From NCBI GenBank assembly GCA_011364905.1, contig RDNZ01000035.1, positions 1-29,702 of the forward strand: DNA of 29,702 bases. The letters are read 5' to 3'. The translations under genes and the position numbers were made by a program. Below, in pieces: positions 823 through 12,350 of this stretch (positions within the stretch are counted from its first letter, which is position 1; each line of letters starts with the position of its first letter). Source of the stretch: Candidatus Thorarchaeota archaeon (GTDB taxonomy: Archaea; Asgardarchaeota; Thorarchaeia; Thorarchaeales; Thorarchaeaceae). Below the pieces are notes generated by a model, which ran no database searches, was not told where the DNA came from, and worked only from the letters and a program-made list of their open reading frames with translations.

Positions 823-934
823 GGTTATCCATTTCAGCAATGATACTCTCCGCTTTTATTTCAATTTCTGCTGAATACTATAGCCAAGCATTGCGTGACT
901 ATGATTAAATCCTGGTTACGCATTATCATTTTTG

Positions 935-1630
935 ATGCCGATCTCATTAGTTGAACAGATCATTAGAGAGCTTCAAAGACTAAGTAAGAGTGAGCGGAAG
1001 CAAAAAATTGCTGAGTATTTGAAAACATCTTCGCTGGATTTCATGGGAGTTGAGCTTCCAGATATTCATAGAACGGTTAAGAACAGCATTAAAGGTTTGA
1101 AGCTGGAGGATTTGCCTAGATTCATGGAAGAACTCTGGAGTAAGAGAATCTTCGAGGTCAGACTCGCTGCGATTGATGTTTTGAAGGTTTATGCAAAGAA
1201 AGGTTCTCTTGAAGTCGCGATGAAACTGGCTGACAAATGGGTGGGTGAAGGAGACACCTGGGGGATTATCGATCCTTTATGCTCTCCCACAATCGGTTCA
1301 ATGATACTACGAGACCCTAACATAGAAACAACACTGAAATCTTGGCAAACGTCAGAAAACTTCTGGAGAAGGAGGGCTTCCGTTCTGCCCTTTCTATATC
1401 TAGCATTGAAAACTCAGTATGTACCTGAATTCAACAATCGGATTCTCCGCGCAGTCACTCCTCATATATCTGATGAAGAATTCTTTGTAGCTAAGTCTGC
1501 AGGCTGGGTACTTCGAGAGCTGAGCAAAAGAGACCCCAAAATTGTGGAGGAATACTTCAAGGAGAACCGCAAGAAAATGTCCAAGCTAGTCATACGCGAA
1601 GGTTCGAAGAAACTGAAGTCAGCACGCTAG
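935..1630 (+). CDS. AlkD-like DNA alkylation repair protein (HEAT-like repeat glycosylase family)
   Basis: FMGV..P, ELW...FEVRLAA, TWGIID, W..SENFWRRRAS, DEEFFVAKSAGWVLRE..K motifs typical of the DNA_alkylation family. Confidence 0.88.
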   Translation: MPISLVEQIIRELQRLSKSERKQKIAEYLKTSSLDFMGVELPDIHRTVKNSIKGLKLEDLPRFMEELWSKRIFEVRLAAIDVLKVYAKKGSLEVAMKLADKWVGEGDTWGIIDPLCSPTIGSMILRDPNIETTLKSWQTSENFWRRRASVLPFLYLALKTQYVPEFNNRILRAVTPHISDEEFFVAKSAGWVLRELSKRDPKIVEEYFKENRKKMSKLVIREGSKKLKSAR

Positions 1631-2836
1631 TTGTTTAACGATTTTCCTTTTGGCCGATTTGGGACTAACGTTTTCAACTGTAATGCTTTCTACTTGATGA
1701 TACTTACCGAAATCCTTGAAGCCTTGAACTGCTCTCTCCAATCCATCTTTTTCTTTCCAGAAGTCGTTCTCAAGATATAGTGAAATCAGATTCATCCTGT
1801 TTTCATTTCTGTGGACTTTTACATCTACTCTTCCAACAAGGTTGAAACCATCAAGAAGAGGAAGAACATGATATCCATACACACGTTTGATCGCCGGAAC
1901 ATATGATTCCAATTTGTAATCGAAATTCCAAATGTTTAGAGGGTAGTGTCGCTCGCGTATAATATTGTCGAATGGGCTTAACAGTTTCACGGGTTCACCA
2001 GACACATCTATGTTATCATTCATCAATTGTTTGACGTTTTTGCTCAGTATATAGTATTGTTCGCTAACTCCTTCTATGGAAACCTGCTCGAGGAATCCCT
2101 CACCTACGAGCTCTTCCAAATAGTCATTGATCTTTCCTCTTGAATTCTTCCAAAGAAACTGAGCTGGCCAACGTCCCAAGTAGGTACGAATATCCTGATA
2201 GTTCCCAAGACCAAGAGACCCAAGCGTTGCTTGAATTGTAAACTGAGCAAGCTCCGAATCACTCATTGGTGTGGTTTCAGTAGTAGTAGGGAGCACCCTT
2301 TCTGTCAGATCATAGAATTTCTGAAAATTCTCTCTGAATGCTATCATTATTTGACCGGTGTAGTGAAGATATTGCATCGACCTGCTTTCAATGGATCCTC
2401 CCCATCCGAGACTCTCCCCCTTGAAATCGGAGCTAGAAGTCGCACCATTCTTTTTGATATGTTCATAGATTTCTCTGATTGTGTCTTTCATCTTCTCCCC
2501 GAATCTCTGAAAATATCCTTTGCTTTCCCTTCGGACCTGTTCCATTTTTCTCACATAAAACGGATAGGTTTCAATAGGGAGCAAGCATAATGAATGGGAC
2601 CAGTATTCGAAAAGTTTGCCTTTCTTGAGATCTTTCCATACATCTCTCTCTTGATACCTCGGGTATCTGTTGTAGATGATTAGATTGTGGCTTCTAGAAA
2701 CTACTGACATGGTATCTATTTGGATACTGTGAATCCTTCTTGCGACACTCAAAGCTGACTTACAGAGTTTTTGAGTCCTCAGTCCTTGAACATCAAGGAT
2801 GAATCCCCTGGCTTTTTCACTAGAAACCTCAATCAT
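1619..2836 (-). CDS. YcaQ/AlkZ (HTH_42) family interstrand-crosslink DNA glycosylase
   Basis: IQIDTMSVVSRSH (QxD motif), LFEYWSH, FQKFYDLTERVLP, LLSPFDN, FDYKLESYVPA.KR.YGY.VLPLL, GRVD.K. Confidence 0.9.
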   Translation of the reverse strand: MIEVSSEKARGFILDVQGLRTQKLCKSALSVARRIHSIQIDTMSVVSRSHNLIIYNRYPRYQERDVWKDLKKGKLFEYWSHSLCLLPIETYPFYVRKMEQVRRESKGYFQRFGEKMKDTIREIYEHIKKNGATSSSDFKGESLGWGGSIESRSMQYLHYTGQIMIAFRENFQKFYDLTERVLPTTTETTPMSDSELAQFTIQATLGSLGLGNYQDIRTYLGRWPAQFLWKNSRGKINDYLEELVGEGFLEQVSIEGVSEQYYILSKNVKQLMNDNIDVSGEPVKLLSPFDNIIRERHYPLNIWNFDYKLESYVPAIKRVYGYHVLPLLDGFNLVGRVDVKVHRNENRMNLISLYLENDFWKEKDGLERAVQGFKDFGKYHQVESITVENVSPKSAKRKIVKQLAC

Positions 2837-3098: not shown

Positions 3099-3350
3099 CT
3101 AGCCTTTTATGGCTGCCATCTCAAGAAGTTCAGGACTTGGCGCTGTTCTCATGTTCCGAATAAGGCTTGTTGAAGCTCCTCTCCTCTTCAGTTCACGTTC
3201 GATCCTGTTCAAACAGATTGTGATATTGACCATTGCATTCTTCAGGGTGACCATGCTCAGTCGAAGTTCATCATCTGTACAATTGGAACATTCCCGAGGA
3301 ATGCAGCACTTGAAGGAGATTTTACGTTCTTTCTCTTCACCCTTTGTCAT
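3099..3350 (-). CDS. Small hypothetical Cys-containing protein
   Basis: MTKGEEKERKISFKCCIPRECSNC followed by an amphipathic helix. Purine-rich stretch upstream of ATG 3350. Confidence 0.5.
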   Translation of the reverse strand: MTKGEEKERKISFKCCIPRECSNCTDDELRLSMVTLKNAMVNITICLNRIERELKRRGASTSLIRNMRTAPSPELLEMAAIKG

Positions 3351-3571
3351 AGTACTTACACCTTTCATTTTCGATTATGTACGATAATATTAGGCACATT
3401 TGGATTAATAGGGTTATCTTTTCAAAAGGCAAATTCTGAAACGTCACAGGCTACAAACGGACATGGAATGAACCCCATAGGTATATTATAGGTTACAGAT
3501 TGAAAACATTATAGTAAACGCGAGTCCATTCTTGATTGTTCCAGATGTTTTCGTGCATCTCAACAATAACT

Positions 3572-4099
3572 CTATTGCCAGTGAATCCTTTCGCAATCAT
3601 ATTCACGAATTGCCCTGCTTAACTCTCCAATGTGCCACATGCTATGTCTCATTGTGTAGAGAATCTTTGCAAGACGGGATGGTTGCCATTCTGAAAAGCC
3701 ATCAGTTTTCACCATGTCACCATAGCTGAGTGAATGAAGTTTCTCCTTAAGTTGCTGTTTGGTTTCCTCGAGGTAGGTAAGCATCTCCTTCTTTGTTATG
3801 CGTGCTGCAGTTTCCTCTGGACTCTCCTCTTTCCACTTAATACCTCCAATTCTTGCGCCCCACTTCATCACTTTTGGATCGTCGTTACCATAGAATTCAA
3901 CAGTTTCAATAATGTGGAAAACCCTTTCTGAAAAGTACCAGACATTCTCTCCTTTCGTCTGATTCCATGGCTTGGTAATCGCATCTAACCCCACCGACCA
4001 CTTCTCATCAGGCACATTTTCGATAGATGCTTTGAGCATATTCCAAACAGACTCAAATTGATCCACTAGATGATTTGCGATTGCGTTTTGTTCTTCCAA
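3572..4099 (-). CDS. DinB/YfiT-like four-helix bundle protein
   Basis: L...IENVPDEKW, FHIIET, and C-terminal RHSMWHIGEL giving the His triad. GGAGG upstream of the TTG start. Confidence 0.8.
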   Translation of the reverse strand: MEEQNAIANHLVDQFESVWNMLKASIENVPDEKWSVGLDAITKPWNQTKGENVWYFSERVFHIIETVEFYGNDDPKVMKWGARIGGIKWKEESPEETAARITKKEMLTYLEETKQQLKEKLHSLSYGDMVKTDGFSEWQPSRLAKILYTMRHSMWHIGELSRAIREYDCERIHWQ

Positions 4100-4177
4100 A
4101 GCGACTCCTCCAACAACTAGCTGTCAATAGCAGGTTCTTTCATATTTGGTTTTTCATTAGGCTTGAAGGGGCTTATC

Positions 4178-5215
4178 CTAGAAGCGTTTTGTTGTCTTTG
4201 GATAGGGCGAGAATTTTCTCCTTTGTTTTGTGGTGATCCAATCTGTTGAATCATCAATATTCCTTAAAGACCTCAAGATATCGAAGGAAATCCATCTTGA
4301 CGCCTTTGGATGTGGTGCGTAATCCCAGAGTCCATACTCGCCTTGTTGGTCAAGAGTCCATTTGATCAGCTCCTTCACTCTGGGATCTGAGCGATTGGCG
4401 CCTACTCTCGAGCACAGGTCAAGTAGCAAAGCGGGATCGAATTTGGCATGATAGGTGAGTACACCACGATGCGGCTCAATGCCAATGTATCTTGCTACAT
4501 TGAATCCAAGATTGTTACGGTCTCGTGTTTCTCTTCCCAGAAGGTGATCCAATGCCTGACGAGCTTCTGTGCTATGCTTTCTTTTCGGATGATGTGCGAA
4601 ACACATCAAAGATTGAGTTGTGTTCGTTCTGCATCCCCACTTCGAGCGAGATAACCTCCTATATCCTGCGATGCCAACAAACACATCATTGACTTTTCCC
4701 GCTGGCCAGGTGCCATCCTCTAAACGCTTGTCAACTAGCCACTCGAATGCCCGTTCGGAGCGCGCGTCCTCTGCATAACCACACATTGCTAGACCCAGAA
4801 GTGGAACCGAGGTTTGCACTGGCGACATGGTATAGGGCCCTCGCGTGTATTCGAAGTCTGAAACTCTCTCAGGTAGTGGCCATGAACCATCCTTTCTCTG
4901 CTTGGAAAACAGATATTTTGCACCCCTCTTGATGGCATTATGATTTCTATCTATTCCAAGATAACCTAGACGCATCAATGCCGCTGTTGTAGCCCTGATA
5001 GATCCACCAATAGTGTAACCTGCCTGGTCGAGCTCTTTCCAGTTTCCACCATCTCTCTGCAGGTTTATGAGGTCTGATACCAGTGAATCCCTTGATCTAG
5101 AAGCTGCAAGTTCTTGCACCTCTTGTTCATCTGCGTCTTGGCCCATGAGCTGTGTGAGCACAAGATAGCGAAGATTAGGTGACCTGTCTGCAAGTAAAAG
5201 TGGAATCCAGGTCAT
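4178..5215 (-). CDS. Prenyltransferase/squalene-cyclase-repeat (alpha/alpha toroid) protein
   Basis: QW-type repeats LQRDGGNW, KQRKDGSW, KRLEDGTW, QQGEYGLW. Start overlaps the upstream UvrA stop (ATGA, 5212-5215). Confidence 0.8.
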   Translation of the reverse strand: MTWIPLLLADRSPNLRYLVLTQLMGQDADEQEVQELAASRSRDSLVSDLINLQRDGGNWKELDQAGYTIGGSIRATTAALMRLGYLGIDRNHNAIKRGAKYLFSKQRKDGSWPLPERVSDFEYTRGPYTMSPVQTSVPLLGLAMCGYAEDARSERAFEWLVDKRLEDGTWPAGKVNDVFVGIAGYRRLSRSKWGCRTNTTQSLMCFAHHPKRKHSTEARQALDHLLGRETRDRNNLGFNVARYIGIEPHRGVLTYHAKFDPALLLDLCSRVGANRSDPRVKELIKWTLDQQGEYGLWDYAPHPKASRWISFDILRSLRNIDDSTDWITTKQRRKFSPYPKTTKRF

Positions 5216-8200
5216 GGCATCTCCTCCAAGATTTCATTGATATACGGTGCTGTTGGGGTTTCAAGGTCCTTTATCTCGTATGGACTGCCTTCTGCGATAA
5301 CAGAACCTCCCCCAGGACCTCCTTTTGGTCCAAGCTCAATCAACCAATCACAGGCAGCCAGAACATGAGGGTGATGCTCAATCACAAAAACACTATTTCC
5401 AGCTGCAACCAACCTCTGAAGAACATCAATCAAACGTCTGACATCCTCCAGATGTTGCCCCACCGTGGGTTCATCTAGAATATAGAGTGTTCCTCTCGTA
5501 GACTTCTTCATCAATTCTTGTGTGATCTTTAATCGCTGAATTTCTCCTCCAGAGAGAGTCCAAGTTGGTTGCTTTAGAACAAGATAGCCAAGACCAACAT
5601 CCAGAGCTGGGCGAAGTCTTCTCTCTATGCGTTCATCATCCTTGAATAGATTGTGAATCTCACTCAATGTGAGACTGTTCAATTCAGGTAGTGAATAGCC
5701 CTTCATTCTCACATCCCATGCTTCGGGGGAGCGACCACTTCCTGCGCAGGTTTCGCAGGGTGTAAAAACCGCAGGAAGAAACCCGAGGTCCGTTCGTAGA
5801 TACCCTGCTCCCTCGCAAATGGAACAAGGCTGTGACAGTTTCTTTTTGTTGAGTCCAAGTGAAACTGCATCCTCGCTCTCAGCAAAGACATCAACCAATG
5901 AATCGAGCAGACCCAAAGCTTGTCCCGGCGAGCGAAGTCCTTTTCGTGCTTGATCAAGAACGACGACCCGCTCTGGCGCATTCGTGATGCTATCGTACTC
6001 CTCTGGCTGAGTTTCCTCATATGCAATACTGGTTGTGAATTTCTTCGGTGCCATTGCTCGAGCGAGTGTGTCAATAAGCAATGTGCTCTTTCCAGAACCA
6101 GACACCCCGCAGAATCCAACCAAAACGCCTAGGGGAATTTCAAGATTTACGTTTTGCAAGTTGTTTCCTCTAGCCCCAACAATCTTCATCCAGGCAATAG
6201 GCGTTCGTGGTGCGTCAGAGAACTGGAACTTACTTTCACCTCGCAACCATCTCCCTGTGACTGAGTTGCATTTGGCAACATCTATGGGAGAACCTACTGT
6301 GACAATCTTTCCTCCTGCTGTCCCTGCCCCAGGGCCCATATCAATCAGTTCATCTGCGGCTTTGATGATGCTCAAATCATGCTCGACAACGATGGGTGTA
6401 TTGCCCTCTTCCTTGAGTTCCCGAAGGGCCTCAATCAGACTATCTACTTCTGATGGGTGCATGCCTCGGGATGGTTCATCAAGCAGAATTGTCAGTGAAG
6501 TCAGGCCGCTGCCCAGCAAGCTTGAAAGAATGACTCTTTGCGCCTCACCGGCAGATAGCGACAATGCTGGACGGTTGAGATGTATATAACCGAGTCCGAC
6601 CTGCTCTAGAAACTTCAGGCGTTTCAAGATAGTTTCAAGATTTGAGGAAGTGAAGTATGCGTCTGTCTCAGGAACCTTGAGGTTTCTGAGGATCTCTCTT
6701 AGTTCAGAGATAGACTTGTCCTTTAACTCGTGGACGTTATAACCCAGAATTGTGAAGGCAAGGTACTCTTCCTTGAGACCCGTTCCTTTACAACTGCTAC
6801 AGGTGACTCGATTAGTGAAGGTCTGTCCCACGTCCCACTCATTTACAAGTTTATAGAATCCCCACCAAGCCTGTCTGCCAGTGATTCTGGTCCTCTCTCC
6901 TCTCCGTGTGCCCAGGTATGAAAACTCGAGCTTCTCAGAGTCACCGTAGAGAAATGCCTGCTTGCCCTCCTCTGATATTTCATTCCAGGGTGTTGTTTTG
7001 GGATTGAACCCGAACTTCTCTCCAAGGGCGACAAGTAATCCAGCTGCCGCACTTTTGGGATCACAGAAGTATTTCCCTGGATAGTATCCTGGAGAGTACA
7101 TTGCACCTTGACACAAGGCTTTCTCAGGAGCAATGATAAGCTTCTCGGGGGCTGGTATGTTTTTCGTGCCAACACCACTGCACTCGCTACAAGCCGCGAA
7201 GTATGTTGTTGATGAAAATGCTCTGGGACTTACCAGAGGTTTGACTGACCTGCATTTGGGACATGACCATTTCTCATTACGAATCATTTTTGTCCCACAG
7301 TCAATGCAGGTCCGTTCTGCAACAGTAGCATACAGAACATTAAGTTGGTTCGATATCTCAGTGACGGTCCCAATATTGGAACGACTTTGATAGACAGCAT
7401 ACCATCCTGATCCTCTACGTCGTCTCGATGAAATAGCCACGGACACTCCTAGACCACTCACACTGTCAACGGGTGCCTCGGGTCCCTCACTCGTACCCTG
7501 TCGCTCGTAAACAGAGAGCGACTCCAGAAATCTTCTGTCAGCTTCTGCTTGGAGCACATCCCTCACAAGAGAGGACTTCCCAGATCCTGATATGCCTGTG
7601 ACTACTGTGAGTTTGCCTTTCTTGATGTCTACATTGACCGACTTCAGATTATTCGCTCTAGCATTTCTGATGGATATCTTGTCTGCGAGTGTGTTTGTCT
7701 TCTTTGGTTTCTTATTGGGTATCACGTTTTCCTCATTCTCAAGGGCATTAGCGGTGAGTGAATTGGCAGTTGCATGGATTCCTGAGACCGGTCCACAGTA
7801 GAGCACTTCCCCGCCTTCCGGTCCTCCAAGAGGCCCCAGATCCATAATCCAGTCTGCTGACTTGATGATGTCAGTATTGTGTTCAACAACAACAATCGTT
7901 GCTCCTTCTTTAACGAGCTTGTCAAGCACGGACAGAAATCCAAAAAGATCGCTTGGATGAAGCCCTGTTGATGGCTCGTCGAGGATCAATAGCTTTGAAG
8001 ACAGTGATTTTCTTCCCAGATACTTTGCGAGCTTGACTCTCTGAGCTTCGCCTCCCGAAAGGCTTGGGGAGCTCTGACCAAGTTTCAGATAGCCAAGACC
8101 GATTGTGACAAGGGCATCCAGGATGTTATGTGCCGATTTCCTCTTACTCTCAGGGAGTCTAGTATCTCCTGATAGAATTGAGTGCACCTCGGCAATGGAG

Positions 8201-10101
8201 AGATTGTAAAAGTCCGCGATAGAGAGGTGTCTATCGCCAAATTCAATCCTGTTCTGCAGAACCTCTTCCTTGAATCTCTGGCTTTCACAGTCGGAGCACA
8301 TTATCCAAATCGAAGGGAGATATCGCATTTTTACTTCAACAGCTCCCATGCCTTTACAGGTGGGACAAGCTCCCTCAGGACGATTGAACGAGAAATGAGA
8401 TGCTGAAAGCCCTGTTTCCGAAGAATAGAGGTCTCTCACGATATCTGACAACTTCGTGTAGGTTCCCGGATTGGATCTCGGATTCTTGCCAATAGGCTTT
8501 TGGTCCACAATAACGGGTTTCAGCTGCTTTCCTTCAAATGCTCTGCAACCTATCGGCTTCCCCTTCTGCAGGGTGGGTACAAGCACATGCTGAACAAGAG
8601 TGCTCTTTCCTGAACCACTTACTCCTGTAACCACTGAGAACCTTTTCAATGGAAACTTAACTTCAATGTCTTTCAGGTTATGTTTGTTTGCTCCAAGAAT
8701 CTTGAAGAACTCAGTAGGCTGCTTGTGAGACTCAAGACTTGGCACTCGCTTTCGAAAGCTGAAGTAATGCCCGGTTGTCGTGTCTGTGTTCCACAGTTCG
8801 TAGGGTGTTCCTGAAAAGACGATTTCTCCACCAAGGTCTCCTGCTTTTGGACCAATGTCAATTGCTCTATCTGCCTGAGCAGCTGCTACCCTATCGTGTT
8901 CTACAAAGATCACCGGCCCCAAGAGCTTTCTGAATGCCGGCATCAAACGTACAACATCGGCTGGGTGTTGCCCTATGGTCGGCTCATCGAGCACATGCAC
9001 AATGTCTTCCAACCTGCTGGTCAGAGAAACAGCGAGCCGGACTCTTTGTGACTCCCCTCTCGAGAGGGTGGGAGAAGAACGGTCCAACTGAATGTAACCA
9101 AGTCCAACAGTCACTAAGGCATCAAGCCTGCGAGAGATCTCAGTCTTCAACCTCCTAGCTGTCGAGGGAAATTCTGCTTCTTTGAACTTCTTGTGAGCCT
9201 CATCAACTGTAAGCGACATCAATGATGGGAATGTCAAGCCCTCCCACTTGATTGCTGCCGCGAGATGGTGTAGTCCTGTGTCATTACATTTTTGACAGCC
9301 TTTGCCTCCACAGTGAATACACTTTATTCCAAAATGTTTTGGCTCAACGGTCCCAAACCAAGTTCCACACTTGGAACATACGTTACTCAAAGAGAGGTCT
9401 CGGGCCGAATTGCTAGATTGGACTCTGATGGAGCTCGAGCCTAAAGAGTAGGCTGTGCGTACAGCGTCCCTGATTTCGGAGGTTTTGGACTTTGCATTCA
9501 GTTCTGCGATCCACACTGAGATGTCATGTGGGCTCTTTGCGGCCAAATCTCTCTGATCCCAAGGCGCGTTATCAACCACGATATGACTGATACCGAATTC
9601 TGACACAAGCAATTCCAGGAGTGTCCTATGACTACCCTTTGTTGCTTGTAGAAGTGTTGCAGAGATCCTCACAACACCCTTCTTCATCTTCTTTTTGATG
9701 AGAGTGACAATCTCGTCCTCCGTAAGTACCTGAAGGCTCGCACCGCAATTCAGACAATAACGAGTCCCGAACCTAGCAAAGAGTAGCCTAAAGAATGGGT
9801 GCAAACCCGATGCTGACGCCAGAGTTGATAGAGGATTAAGATTGAGTAGATTTTGACCCACGGCGATGATCGGACCAACGCCTGTGACCGAACGAACGTT
9901 AGCTGGAGGCATTCGTGTCCTCGGACTGCTCGATCGAAATACATCCAAGAACCTTCTTTGAGCCTCATGGTAAAGGGTGTCAAAAACGAGCGATGTCTTT
10001 CCCGACCCGCTTATGCCCGTGACGACAGTGAGTCCATCAACTATGTCGACATCCACTGATTTGAGATTATTCTCACGGGCACCACGGATTCGGATATCCA
10101 T
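5212..10101 (-). CDS. uvrA: Tandem-fused double UvrA-like ABC ATPase (four nucleotide-binding domains)
   Basis: Four GA..NNL openers, four Walker A (GISGSGKT, GVSGSGKS, GISGSGKS, GVSGSGKS), four signatures (LSRGE, LSGGE, LSAGE, LSGGE), four LDEP Walker B, many CxxC Zn modules, FSFNRPEGACPTC. Confidence 0.92.
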   Translation of the reverse strand: MDIRIRGARENNLKSVDVDIVDGLTVVTGISGSGKTSLVFDTLYHEAQRRFLDVFRSSSPRTRMPPANVRSVTGVGPIIAVGQNLLNLNPLSTLASASGLHPFFRLLFARFGTRYCLNCGASLQVLTEDEIVTLIKKKMKKGVVRISATLLQATKGSHRTLLELLVSEFGISHIVVDNAPWDQRDLAAKSPHDISVWIAELNAKSKTSEIRDAVRTAYSLGSSSIRVQSSNSARDLSLSNVCSKCGTWFGTVEPKHFGIKCIHCGGKGCQKCNDTGLHHLAAAIKWEGLTFPSLMSLTVDEAHKKFKEAEFPSTARRLKTEISRRLDALVTVGLGYIQLDRSSPTLSRGESQRVRLAVSLTSRLEDIVHVLDEPTIGQHPADVVRLMPAFRKLLGPVIFVEHDRVAAAQADRAIDIGPKAGDLGGEIVFSGTPYELWNTDTTTGHYFSFRKRVPSLESHKQPTEFFKILGANKHNLKDIEVKFPLKRFSVVTGVSGSGKSTLVQHVLVPTLQKGKPIGCRAFEGKQLKPVIVDQKPIGKNPRSNPGTYTKLSDIVRDLYSSETGLSASHFSFNRPEGACPTCKGMGAVEVKMRYLPSIWIMCSDCESQRFKEEVLQNRIEFGDRHLSIADFYNLSIAEVHSILSGDTRLPESKRKSAHNILDALVTIGLGYLKLGQSSPSLSGGEAQRVKLAKYLGRKSLSSKLLILDEPSTGLHPSDLFGFLSVLDKLVKEGATIVVVEHNTDIIKSADWIMDLGPLGGPEGGEVLYCGPVSGIHATANSLTANALENEENVIPNKKPKKTNTLADKISIRNARANNLKSVNVDIKKGKLTVVTGISGSGKSSLVRDVLQAEADRRFLESLSVYERQGTSEGPEAPVDSVSGLGVSVAISSRRRRGSGWYAVYQSRSNIGTVTEISNQLNVLYATVAERTCIDCGTKMIRNEKWSCPKCRSVKPLVSPRAFSSTTYFAACSECSGVGTKNIPAPEKLIIAPEKALCQGAMYSPGYYPGKYFCDPKSAAAGLLVALGEKFGFNPKTTPWNEISEEGKQAFLYGDSEKLEFSYLGTRRGERTRITGRQAWWGFYKLVNEWDVGQTFTNRVTCSSCKGTGLKEEYLAFTILGYNVHELKDKSISELREILRNLKVPETDAYFTSSNLETILKRLKFLEQVGLGYIHLNRPALSLSAGEAQRVILSSLLGSGLTSLTILLDEPSRGMHPSEVDSLIEALRELKEEGNTPIVVEHDLSIIKAADELIDMGPGAGTAGGKIVTVGSPIDVAKCNSVTGRWLRGESKFQFSDAPRTPIAWMKIVGARGNNLQNVNLEIPLGVLVGFCGVSGSGKSTLLIDTLARAMAPKKFTTSIAYEETQPEEYDSITNAPERVVVLDQARKGLRSPGQALGLLDSLVDVFAESEDAVSLGLNKKKLSQPCSICEGAGYLRTDLGFLPAVFTPCETCAGSGRSPEAWDVRMKGYSLPELNSLTLSEIHNLFKDDERIERRLRPALDVGLGYLVLKQPTWTLSGGEIQRLKITQELMKKSTRGTLYILDEPTVGQHLEDVRRLIDVLQRLVAAGNSVFVIEHHPHVLAACDWLIELGPKGGPGGGSVIAEGSPYEIKDLETPTAPYINEILEEMP

Positions 10102-10872: not shown

Positions 10873-11571
10873 ATGGACGAAGAGGGATTTGTTTCTTACA
10901 TGAAGAAGCAACGAAAAACGGAGCGTACAATCTCAACCTGCGTTGATAATGTAAAGGACTTCGAGGACTTCCTAAAACAGCATGGAACTTCTCTTGAAAA
11001 AGCTTCTAAACATGACCTTGAGTCGTTTGCAGCTGATCACCTAGAGAAGAAGCGAGTGTCTAAGGTCATGTGGGGATTAAGCCATTACTTCAGATATGTT
11101 GGGGCTGACCACTTGCTGAGTGCTGCTGGTCGTACTCGTGAGACGCGTGTCAAGGCTTCCAGAACGTCATTCAAACTACGAGGTTTTAGGGGTGTTGATC
11201 CAAAACACGCAAGCAGGCTATCGGCGCTCGGCGTAGACAACACGAAGAAGATGTTGGAGGCTGGAAAAACACCTTTGATGAGGGACGAGTTGTCTGAGAG
11301 GTCCGGCCTTGATATTAGTGTGATTGAGGAACTTGTCAGGCTCTCAGACCTGGCAAGAATACAGGGTGTCAAAGGTATTCGTGCACGTTTGTATTATGAT
11401 GCCGGGTTTGACTTACTAGAGAAACTCAGGAATGTCACTCCCGAGACCCTCTTGGCAGTGACTCGGGAGTTTGTTAAAAGAACTGGATTTGATGGTATAG
11501 CTCCTTTACCAAAAGAGGCTCAGAGCGCAATCGCAACTGCAAAGAAATTGCCAGATCTTGTTGAATGGTGA
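10873..11571 (+). CDS. Integrase-type SAM-like N-terminal domain fused to a DUF4332 (HhH) domain
   Basis: F..YM.....ERTI..C......F..FL helical N-terminus. C-terminal GV.....L...GV.....LL.AG.TP..R..L....G.......LV..SDLARIQGVKG. Confidence 0.75.
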   Translation: MDEEGFVSYMKKQRKTERTISTCVDNVKDFEDFLKQHGTSLEKASKHDLESFAADHLEKKRVSKVMWGLSHYFRYVGADHLLSAAGRTRETRVKASRTSFKLRGFRGVDPKHASRLSALGVDNTKKMLEAGKTPLMRDELSERSGLDISVIEELVRLSDLARIQGVKGIRARLYYDAGFDLLEKLRNVTPETLLAVTREFVKRTGFDGIAPLPKEAQSAIATAKKLPDLVEW

Positions 11572-11711: not shown

Positions 11712-12350
11712 TTGCCTACAAAAACCACCACTGCGGAACCAAATGCTGAGGAGAGAAACAACGTGCGCGACCAAGATGATGGCAGCAAAATAATGAAAGC
11801 AGTCCTCATAGGGGACGGGTCTGTCGGCAAGACAAGCATCCGCAGAAATTACTTAGGCGAGGACTTTATCGAGGGACATCTTGCTACAATAGGTGTTGAC
11901 CTAGCCACTAAGCGGGTTCTTTTTGAGCAGGATGTTGTGAAGTTCATAATTTGGGACCTTGCTGGCCAGCCAACCTTCGAGAAAGTCCGAGGGCACTACT
12001 ATAGTGGCTGCAATGGGATTCTACTGGTCTACTCAGTCGTTGATCGTAGCTCATTTGACAATGCGAGCAAATGGCTGGTTGAAGCGTACAAGAACATGGG
12101 TCCTTTGCCACCTACTGTCATTATTGGTAACAAGATTGATATTCGACAGTCCCTCGATCAGAAGAAGTATGTAACCCCTGAAGAAGGCCAGGCTTTTACT
12201 GAATACTTCATCAAGAAACTAGAGGTTCCAGCAATCTTCAGAGAAACCTCTGCGAAGACAGGCGCGAACATACAGGATACTTTCCATGAACTTCTCCGTA
12301 TGATGAGCGAGGCTCAAAACGGTAAGAACAACGACTTCTACATGCCTTAG
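11712..12350 (+). CDS. Rab-like small GTPase (Ras superfamily)
   Basis: G1 GDGSVGKT, ATIGVD, G3 WDLAGQ, G4 NKID, G5 TSAK. No C-terminal prenylation cysteines. Confidence 0.93.
   Translation: MPTKTTTAEPNAEERNNVRDQDDGSKIMKAVLIGDGSVGKTSIRRNYLGEDFIEGHLATIGVDLATKRVLFEQDVVKFIIWDLAGQPTFEKVRGHYYSGCNGILLVYSVVDRSSFDNASKWLVEAYKNMGPLPPTVIIGNKIDIRQSLDQKKYVTPEEGQAFTEYFIKKLEVPAIFRETSAKTGANIQDTFHELLRMMSEAQNGKNNDFYMP

Follow-up and report, generated by a model that had tools for sequence, protein, structure and literature searches.

The DNA analysed here (the window) is a 29,702-nucleotide (nt) stretch of Candidatus Thorarchaeota archaeon (assembly GCA_011364905.1, contig RDNZ01000035.1), a contig of an Asgard metagenome-assembled genome (MAG) of about 81% completeness; among named homologues, the closest are from Thorarchaeota. 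Three genes lie in order on the minus strand: a double (fused) UvrA of 1629 aa (5212..10101), matching TIGR00630 and NF001503 in four pieces, a predicted non-cyclase, single-domain (alpha/alpha)6 toroid of 345 aa (4178..5215), recognised by Pfam SQHop_cyclase_C and by an AlphaFold2 (AF2) model, and a DinB-fold protein of 175 aa (3572..4099), assigned from a fold model and a His triad. The first two genes share the four bases ATGA (5212..5215, minus strand, read directly from the sequence): the UvrA stop TGA occupies 5214-5212 and the toroid start ATG 5215-5213, with a Shine-Dalgarno-like GGAGGAG at 5227-5221, six bases upstream of the ATG. The DinB-like open reading frame (ORF) starts at a TTG 78 nt past the toroid stop and has its own GGAGGAG at 4111-4105. 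An earlier reading of these letters by a model (the sequence-only reading) had pointed out both the overlap and the DinB-like gene 78 nt on, which are present as it described them, and had proposed that the toroid is an undescribed partner of this UvrA variant in a two- or three-gene system. By its arrangement, the ATGA overlap would couple the translation of the UvrA and toroid genes.

The association of the two genes extends well outside Thorarchaeota. A scan of one genome per species yielded 153 toroid-encoding stretches, and 80 loci of these were examined, spanning Thor-, Hermod-, Heimdall- and Hodarchaeota, Bathyarchaeia, many Anaerolineae and other Chloroflexi as well as single MAGs of Aminicenantes, Proteobacteria, Patescibacteria and Spirochaetales. 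The toroid gene sits directly behind the double UvrA gene in nearly all of the roughly 105 loci inspected, which come from Asgard archaea, Bathyarchaeia, Chloroflexi and a small number of other bacteria, and a 1.6-1.75-kaa UvrA stands immediately 5' of the toroid in nearly all loci with upstream DNA. The toroid follows the 3' end of UvrA in 29/29 fetched Asgard loci, and the exact 4-nt NTGA overlap is kept at 90 of the 104 assessable junctions in other genomes. This adjacency is far beyond chance. The exceptions are L065, with no UvrA-like gene within 7 kb upstream of the toroid, L071 and L085, in which one or three genes are inserted between UvrA and toroid, and L072 and L092, in which truncated UvrA remnants lie by the toroid; in several long-read assemblies the UvrA is in pieces, which we take to be frameshift errors.

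Co-occurrence holds in both directions. Among 201 Asgard genomes, the double UvrA was found in 44, a toroid orthologue in about 42 and both in 40; the UvrA of the four UvrA-only genomes is cut by a contig end, the two toroid-only matches are fragments, and every Asgard double UvrA that is not cut by a contig end is accompanied by the toroid (40/40). Five of 151 Anaerolineae genomes encode the double UvrA; the toroid is adjacent in the four that can be assessed (4/4) and the fifth UvrA runs off its contig. The sequence-only reading had named orthologues of this UvrA usually lacking a following toroid gene as the observation that would count against it, and the outcome of that check was clearly the opposite: the toroid gene is dedicated to this UvrA variant as its partner. 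It is also extremely improbable that a terpenoid or prenyl enzyme gene unrelated to UvrA has come to lie here by chance or local adjacency. The toroid's only family matches are indeed squalene cyclase repeats, but such an explanation is contradicted by the synteny, the overlap and the co-occurrence seen in both archaea and bacteria, as well as by the missing DxDD motif and a cyclase score far below the cut-off (47 vs 851 bits).

The two proteins have also evolved together. Pairwise distances between UvrAs correlate with those between toroids (r = 0.888, Mantel 0/999), and the two trees are congruent, with the same Thor, Heimdall/Hod, Bathyarchaeia plus Aminicenantes and Chloroflexi clades. Thus, the two genes have been transferred together and have evolved together, at similar rates. 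The data strongly support a self-contained two-gene module that has spread horizontally between archaea and bacteria, and in this respect synteny, overlap and co-inheritance bear out the two-gene system proposed earlier. Its distribution is patchy: the pair is carried by about a fifth of the sampled Asgard genomes, by 4 of 14 other genomes of the window's genus and also by anaerobic Chloroflexi.

Such a distribution is also what an anti-phage or anti-plasmid defence system might display, the UvrA-like ATPase sensing foreign or modified DNA and the toroid acting as effector or adaptor. The patchiness within the genus (4/14), the transfer between archaea and bacteria as a unit and the variable neighbourhoods would all fit, and the PADLOC model mad3 (MADS) matches the double UvrA at 2.8e-113. 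That match is generic to UvrA, however, the canonical UvrA of the host matching too (6.2e-85), and it therefore does not favour a defence function. The toroid matches no PADLOC 2.0 model and no nuclease, TIR, pore or other recognisable toxic-effector family, and the neighbours are not defence genes. Carriage by mobile elements was rejected, no relatives being found in IMG/VR viral contigs or PLSDB plasmids, which again counts against defence. We give this explanation little credence.

The double UvrA comprises four ABC nucleotide-binding domains and six Zn (CxxC pair) modules, its halves meeting around residues 790-820. Each half has lost a different accessory domain. The first retains a UvrB-binding-like domain (UBD-like; residues ~120-241, 9379..9744, minus strand), the only one in the protein, flanked by CLNC(116) and CSKC(242) and matching Pfam UvrA_inter over residues 127-229 (1.2e-7, 32 bits); TIGR00630 positions 278-403, the insertion domain, are missing from this half. 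The second retains the only insertion domain, the part of UvrA by which a lesion is clamped and read (residues ~975-1100, 6802..7179, minus strand; Pfam UvrA_DNA-bind, residues 988-1070), flanked by CSEC(971) and CSSC(1101), and lacks TIGR00630 positions 126-246, the UvrB-binding domain. The pattern was followed in 44 full-length orthologues (1595-1753 aa) through the spacing between the flanking CxxC pairs. In half 1 the Zn1 spacing, which contains the UBD-like domain, is 111-153 aa (122 aa in the window protein), and that of Zn2, with no insertion domain, 0-4 aa; in half 2 the Zn1 spacing, with no UBD, is 11 aa apart from one outlier of 42, and that of Zn2, which contains the insertion domain, 122-128 aa. 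The loss is therefore reciprocal in 44/44 orthologues, half 1 keeping only the UBD-like and half 2 only the insertion domain. Over the same set, the Walker A, Walker B and signature motifs of all four ATP sites (4/4) and all six CxxC pairs (6/6) are conserved. No single piece of the protein reaches the TIGR00630/NF001503 family cut-off.

This anatomy recalls a known step of nucleotide excision repair. In the cryo-electron microscopy structure of the M. tuberculosis UvrA2-UvrB1-DNA complex, binding of UvrB to the UBD and of DNA to the insertion domain are mutually exclusive within a protomer (PMC11985968), and an asymmetric intermediate is formed in which the 'recognition' insertion domain of one protomer holds the lesion and the other protomer presents its UBD (PMC11985968). 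By analogy, the double UvrA looks like the asymmetric UvrA2-UvrB1 intermediate made permanent, with one domain of each kind, carried on different halves.

The host also encodes, on another contig (C47:20988-28626), uvrB and, behind it, a tandem of two canonical uvrA genes of full length. The UvrA-toroid module is thus an addition to this separate uvrB-uvrA-uvrA set.

The toroid partner is named 'hypothetical' or 'prenyltransferase/squalene oxidase repeat-containing protein' in databases. It matches Pfam SQHop_cyclase_C (1.8e-11), while NCBIfam cyclase models match only its QW region of about 100 residues (TIGR03463, 47 bits for a cut-off of 851; TIGR01507, 33 for 431), and a PDB sequence search returned squalene cyclase repeat matches only. 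As the sequence-only reading had remarked, QW-like repeats are present (one full motif at residues 97-112 and two QW-like at 53-59 and 290-297) and the DxDD motif is absent; among the 44 orthologues a DxDD occurs incidentally in three, each time at another position. There is likewise no CGEQ thioester motif, the sole invariant Cys sitting in GCR[TS]NTT. To judge from the missing DxDD and the single 345-aa domain, the protein is not a cyclase. The AF2 model, built with 31 homologues, is a single (alpha/alpha)6 toroid (predicted local distance difference test, pLDDT, 88.4; predicted template-modelling score, pTM, 0.90). VIA structural matches of this model include squalene-hopene cyclase (1gsz, Z 15.1) and the thioester domain (TED) of C5 (9y6c, Z 14.7), the thioester domains of C5, C3, C4, TEP1 and A2M spanning Z 13-14.7 and being followed by epimerases, GH76 and LanC; Foldseek matches had template-modelling (TM) scores of at most 0.48. 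As far as the model goes, these matches are generic for the fold.

The family has conserved features of its own. S12, R16, G110, T135, P138, W159, D167, G168, G173, Y185, R186, C195, R196, L226, G237, G245, G251, D260 and R279 are invariant, and H209 nearly so. In the AF2 model, the invariant residues outside the QW loops fall at or just before the N-termini of alternate helices. The central funnel of an alpha/alpha toroid lies at the N-termini of its inner helices; if the alternate helices are the inner ones, as we infer, the invariant Ser, Thr, Asn, Arg and Cys residues would line the mouth of the ring. A C-terminal tail of low model confidence carries a conserved ...EPRTPFxxYPxxxKR[FY] motif. 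The basic surface put forward in the sequence-only reading stands for the window protein, which contains YRRLSRSKW (185-193) and KQRRKFSPYPKTTKRF (330-345), but not for the family, whose isoelectric point (pI) ranges from 5.3 to 10.0 across the 44 orthologues. The basic surface is thus a feature of the Thor clade; across the family, conservation is confined to the YRR...GCR segment and the motif of the C-terminal tail.

These residues raise the possibility that the toroid is a small-molecule enzyme or binder that detoxifies or sequesters a genotoxin, active in the pathway of UvrA but not bound to it. A drug-sequestering protein was also among the roles put forward in the sequence-only reading. 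The central funnel of alpha/alpha toroids is a common binding site for small molecules, chemistry is suggested by Cys195, Arg196 and the nearly invariant His209, and a toroid paralogue follows PadR and BtrH-like genes at 10-11 Asgard loci without UvrA. Against this explanation, the 4-nt overlap has been kept over identities of 45-77% and the rates of the two proteins are matched, which is typical of the subunits of one complex; moreover, the toroid occurs apart from UvrA only at L065, L071 and L085 of about 100 loci. We consider this explanation improbable.

The toroid has several paralogues, described here in their own right. The operon just mentioned, PadR - BtrH_N/DUF4872 - toroid paralogue, is found without UvrA at 10-11 loci of one Asgard family (L123:4890-7618, L158-L170); the host has a copy of this paralogue at C19:38960-39943, without the PadR and BtrH-like genes. 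PadR-type regulators also head some operons orthologous to that of the window, and PadR plus BtrH-like genes precede the double UvrA in the Thor-type loci L047, L048 and L052, a BtrH-like gene alone doing so in L049. As partners of the pair we rejected them; with 10-11 paralogue loci and four Thor-type UvrA loci, they are a lineage-limited lead only. In another Asgard genome (G040:C27, L122:4986-8475), an 833-aa single UvrA-like gene is followed, after 17 nt, by a toroid paralogue 28% identical to the window toroid; by Pfam, the 833-aa protein has an insertion domain and no UvrB-binding domain. A general link between paralogues and UvrA was dismissed, as it was seen at 0/29 other loci of this paralogue family, relatives of 67-70% included. 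Four orthologues of the paralogue toroid-B, all from one Asgard genus, each have a single in-frame TAA (G008:C47:181749-182714, G150:C57:8881-9849, G189:C379:773-1735 and G192:C77:12367-13182), which could reflect readthrough, a gene split in two or a pseudogene common to the four.

The pair has no conserved third gene: the largest other neighbour cluster is present in 9/80 loci, and PFL, histidine kinases, peptidases and VWA proteins are among the neighbours. The three-gene form of the system suggested by the sequence-only reading is thus not borne out: the DinB-like gene stands by the pair in just four loci, the window and three close Thorarchaeota relatives (L015, L042, L045), its family is confined to Thorarchaeota, and we rejected it as a third member. 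The family comprises about 50 proteins, all at least 53% identical, whose source-named members come from Thor-/Promethearchaeota MAGs. Its identity as DinB-like, by contrast, holds from the fold match and the His triad. The Pfam scores are below the gathering thresholds (DinB 21.2 bits for a cut-off of 23, DinB_2 20.9 for 24.8) and a PDB sequence search gave nothing useful, but the AF2 model (pLDDT 90.5) adopts the four-helix-bundle DinB/YfiT fold, and its top Foldseek matches are almost all of the DinB/YfiT type (6iz2, 3gor, 8f5v, 1rxq and ClbS 6anr), a mycothiol S-transferase being among them, with TM scores up to 0.69 and weak E-values (best 1.6e-3). The triad H62/H152/H156, which we take to be equivalent to the metal-binding triad of YfiT, is invariant in 17 homologues. 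ClbS, a DNA-binding protein of colibactin self-resistance, matches the DinB-like protein with a TM score of 0.59; the His triad is kept in the DinB-like protein, presumably unlike in ClbS.

Two further repair genes of the window are local context only: an AlkZ-like DNA glycosylase (1619..2836, minus strand; Pfam AlkZ-like 2.8e-41) and an AlkD-like 'DNA alkylation repair enzyme' (932..1630, plus strand; Pfam DNA_alkylation 9.3e-49). Together they complete a local alkylation/crosslink repair set, although they accompany the pair only sporadically elsewhere: an AlkZ-like gene is near it in 5/80 other loci (L042, L045, L055, L072 and L091), L055 being the sole locus with AlkZ directly after the toroid, and an AlkD-like gene is near it in L042, L043 and L045 only. 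With so few loci, and no third gene cluster above 9/80, neither was retained as a member. Two ORFs of the minus strand without a Pfam match, at 3099-3368 (89 aa) and 232-840 (202 aa), are kept at 60-72% identity in syntenic Thorarchaeota loci (L042 and L045, the 202-aa ORF also in L043) and are probably real genes within the local repair cluster. On the other side of the pair, about 0.8 kb beyond the UvrA start and on the opposite strand, a gene at 10873-11571 (plus strand) encodes a 232-aa protein with a phage-integrase SAM-like N-terminal domain and DUF4332; a Ras-family GTPase gene is found at 11712-12350. In seven Anaerolineae/Chloroflexia loci, the gene immediately upstream of the double UvrA, in the same orientation, encodes a calcineurin-like phosphoesterase (Metallophos, ~360 aa; e.g. 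L066:716-1792).

With slightly better than even confidence, we propose that the double UvrA is an ATP-driven sensor of chemically distorted DNA and that the toroid is its fixed, stoichiometric partner for the exposed lesion or the displaced compound. The first gene would encode a single-chain UvrA pseudo-dimer with four intact ATPase sites, from which complementary accessory domains have been lost, and the toroid would be made in step with it through the start/stop overlap. Most likely, the two proteins would then form a complex. UvrA would use ATP to find distorted DNA, carrying bulky chemical adducts or DNA-bound genotoxins, and the toroid, standing in at one step for the UvrB of canonical repair, would bind the exposed base or lesion or else the compound that has been displaced. 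The module would work beside ordinary UvrABC and not in its place. The AlkZ-like, AlkD-like and DinB-fold genes by the pair in the window and the PadR-type regulators at the head of some orthologous operons were counted as functional context for this proposal, and there is precedent for UvrA-derived machines outside nucleotide excision repair in Ecm16 (PMC9328131).

Several observations weigh against this proposal. DNA-repair neighbours occur in few lineages only, most contexts consisting of unrelated genes. The conserved toroid residues were placed at the ring mouth from the secondary structure of the model. The net charge of the toroid varies from -10 to +22 over the 44 orthologues, along with the pI, and general DNA binding is therefore unlikely. 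A natural UvrA-toroid fusion would have spoken for an interaction, but the only one found (P0274, a 2.8-kb contig of a JGI metagenome) was set aside: its 741-aa ORF joins the last UvrA nucleotide-binding domain to a full toroid and is probably a frameshift, because UvrA similarity ends about 40 residues early. Within the UvrA, conservation is lowest in the UBD-like domain (34% mean identity vs 54-71% elsewhere), which is mildly unfavourable to a fixed docking site there, without refuting one. Lastly, most carriers of the module also encode UvrB, which is present in 154/201 Asgard genomes; with UvrB so widespread in these genomes and in most carriers, its presence or absence was uninformative as a discriminator.

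The presence of UvrB in the host and in most carriers suits a different explanation, that the double UvrA is a front end for ordinary excision repair, its UBD-like arm recruiting one UvrB of the cell in a defined orientation and the toroid, no substitute for UvrB, acting as a chaperone or as a factor for regulation or specificity. Pfam UvrA_inter does still match the UBD-like domain, and the asymmetric UvrA2-UvrB1 intermediate is a real step of nucleotide excision repair (PMC11985968). Nevertheless, this appears rather unlikely: (i), the same domain is weakly conserved and scores only 32 bits, (ii), the host already has two canonical uvrA genes by uvrB, (iii), at least one fairly complete carrier (G140, 93%) gave no UvrB match and, (iv), the tight 1:1 coupling marks the toroid, not UvrB, as the fixed partner. 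The opposite possibility, that the toroid replaces UvrB on the single partner arm in a UvrB-independent pathway for chemically damaged or drug-bound DNA, with a Cys195/Arg196 funnel capturing the flipped-out adducted base or released genotoxin, possibly covalently, we regard as unlikely; if true, this pathway would be common to Asgard archaea, Bathyarchaeia and Chloroflexi.

What is new in the proposed sensor is a UvrA-family protein with a new fixed architecture and a new partner. In the literature searched we found no paper describing the UvrA-toroid pair, in agreement with the description of the toroid as an undescribed partner. We know of no DNA-repair role for the alpha/alpha-toroid fold, and none was reported in the literature searched; if the toroid does handle a lesion or a drug, it would be a component of repair or resistance of a new type. 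Judged by their source names, the matching assemblies come mostly from sediments, groundwater and anaerobic reactors. Should these habitats hold, UV would be an unlikely driver and chemical genotoxins more plausible. One open question of bacterial excision repair is how a symmetric UvrA dimer comes to hand over a single lesion-bearing strand in asymmetric fashion (PMC11985968), and a natural single-chain UvrA with permanently different halves offers a direct experimental handle on this asymmetry.

The module can be set against several known systems. Class I UvrA (TIGR00630/NF001503) has the same two composite ABC domains, signature motifs and three Zn modules that are found in each half of the double UvrA, which has intact ATP sites and in total one UBD-like and one insertion domain. 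It is, however, a homodimer of ~940-aa chains, in contrast to the single 1629-aa chain described here, and each of its protomers has both a UBD and an insertion domain, whereas each half of the double UvrA is without one of them, giving a fixed asymmetric form; the double UvrA gene is moreover coupled to a toroid gene and not sited with uvrB. Class II UvrAs (DrrC, Ecm16, Deinococcus UvrA2) are also UvrA-derived ATPases that have lost the UvrB-binding domain, as has half 2. Those of class IIa are single-length homodimers without the UBD and the first Zn finger (PMC9328131), and Ecm16-type paralogues confer drug resistance without UvrB or UvrC in an ATPase-dependent manner (PMC9328131). The double UvrA differs in that its half 1 has the UBD-like and no insertion domain, and in that the Zn1 CxxC pairs are invariant in both halves; no toroid partner of a class II UvrA was reported in the literature searched. 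The chlamydial-type double UvrA (NF001885/PRK00635, 1809 positions) is likewise a tandem fusion with four nucleotide-binding domains, but the window protein scores 853 bits for a cut-off of 3054 and is not part of that equivalog.

On the side of the partner, squalene-hopene cyclase and the TED of complement and alpha2-macroglobulin share the (alpha/alpha)6 toroid fold and QW repeats. The cyclase is a two-domain (beta-gamma) protein of ~620 aa with DxDD, in contrast to the single 345-aa toroid, which has none, and the CGEQ thioester of the TED is absent; the Z scores of the toroid with TEDs (13-14.7) are on par with those for cyclases and glycosidases. What sets the toroid apart from both is its own invariant set (S12, R16, T135, P138, Y185, R186, C195, R196, D260 and R279), together with a conserved basic tail.

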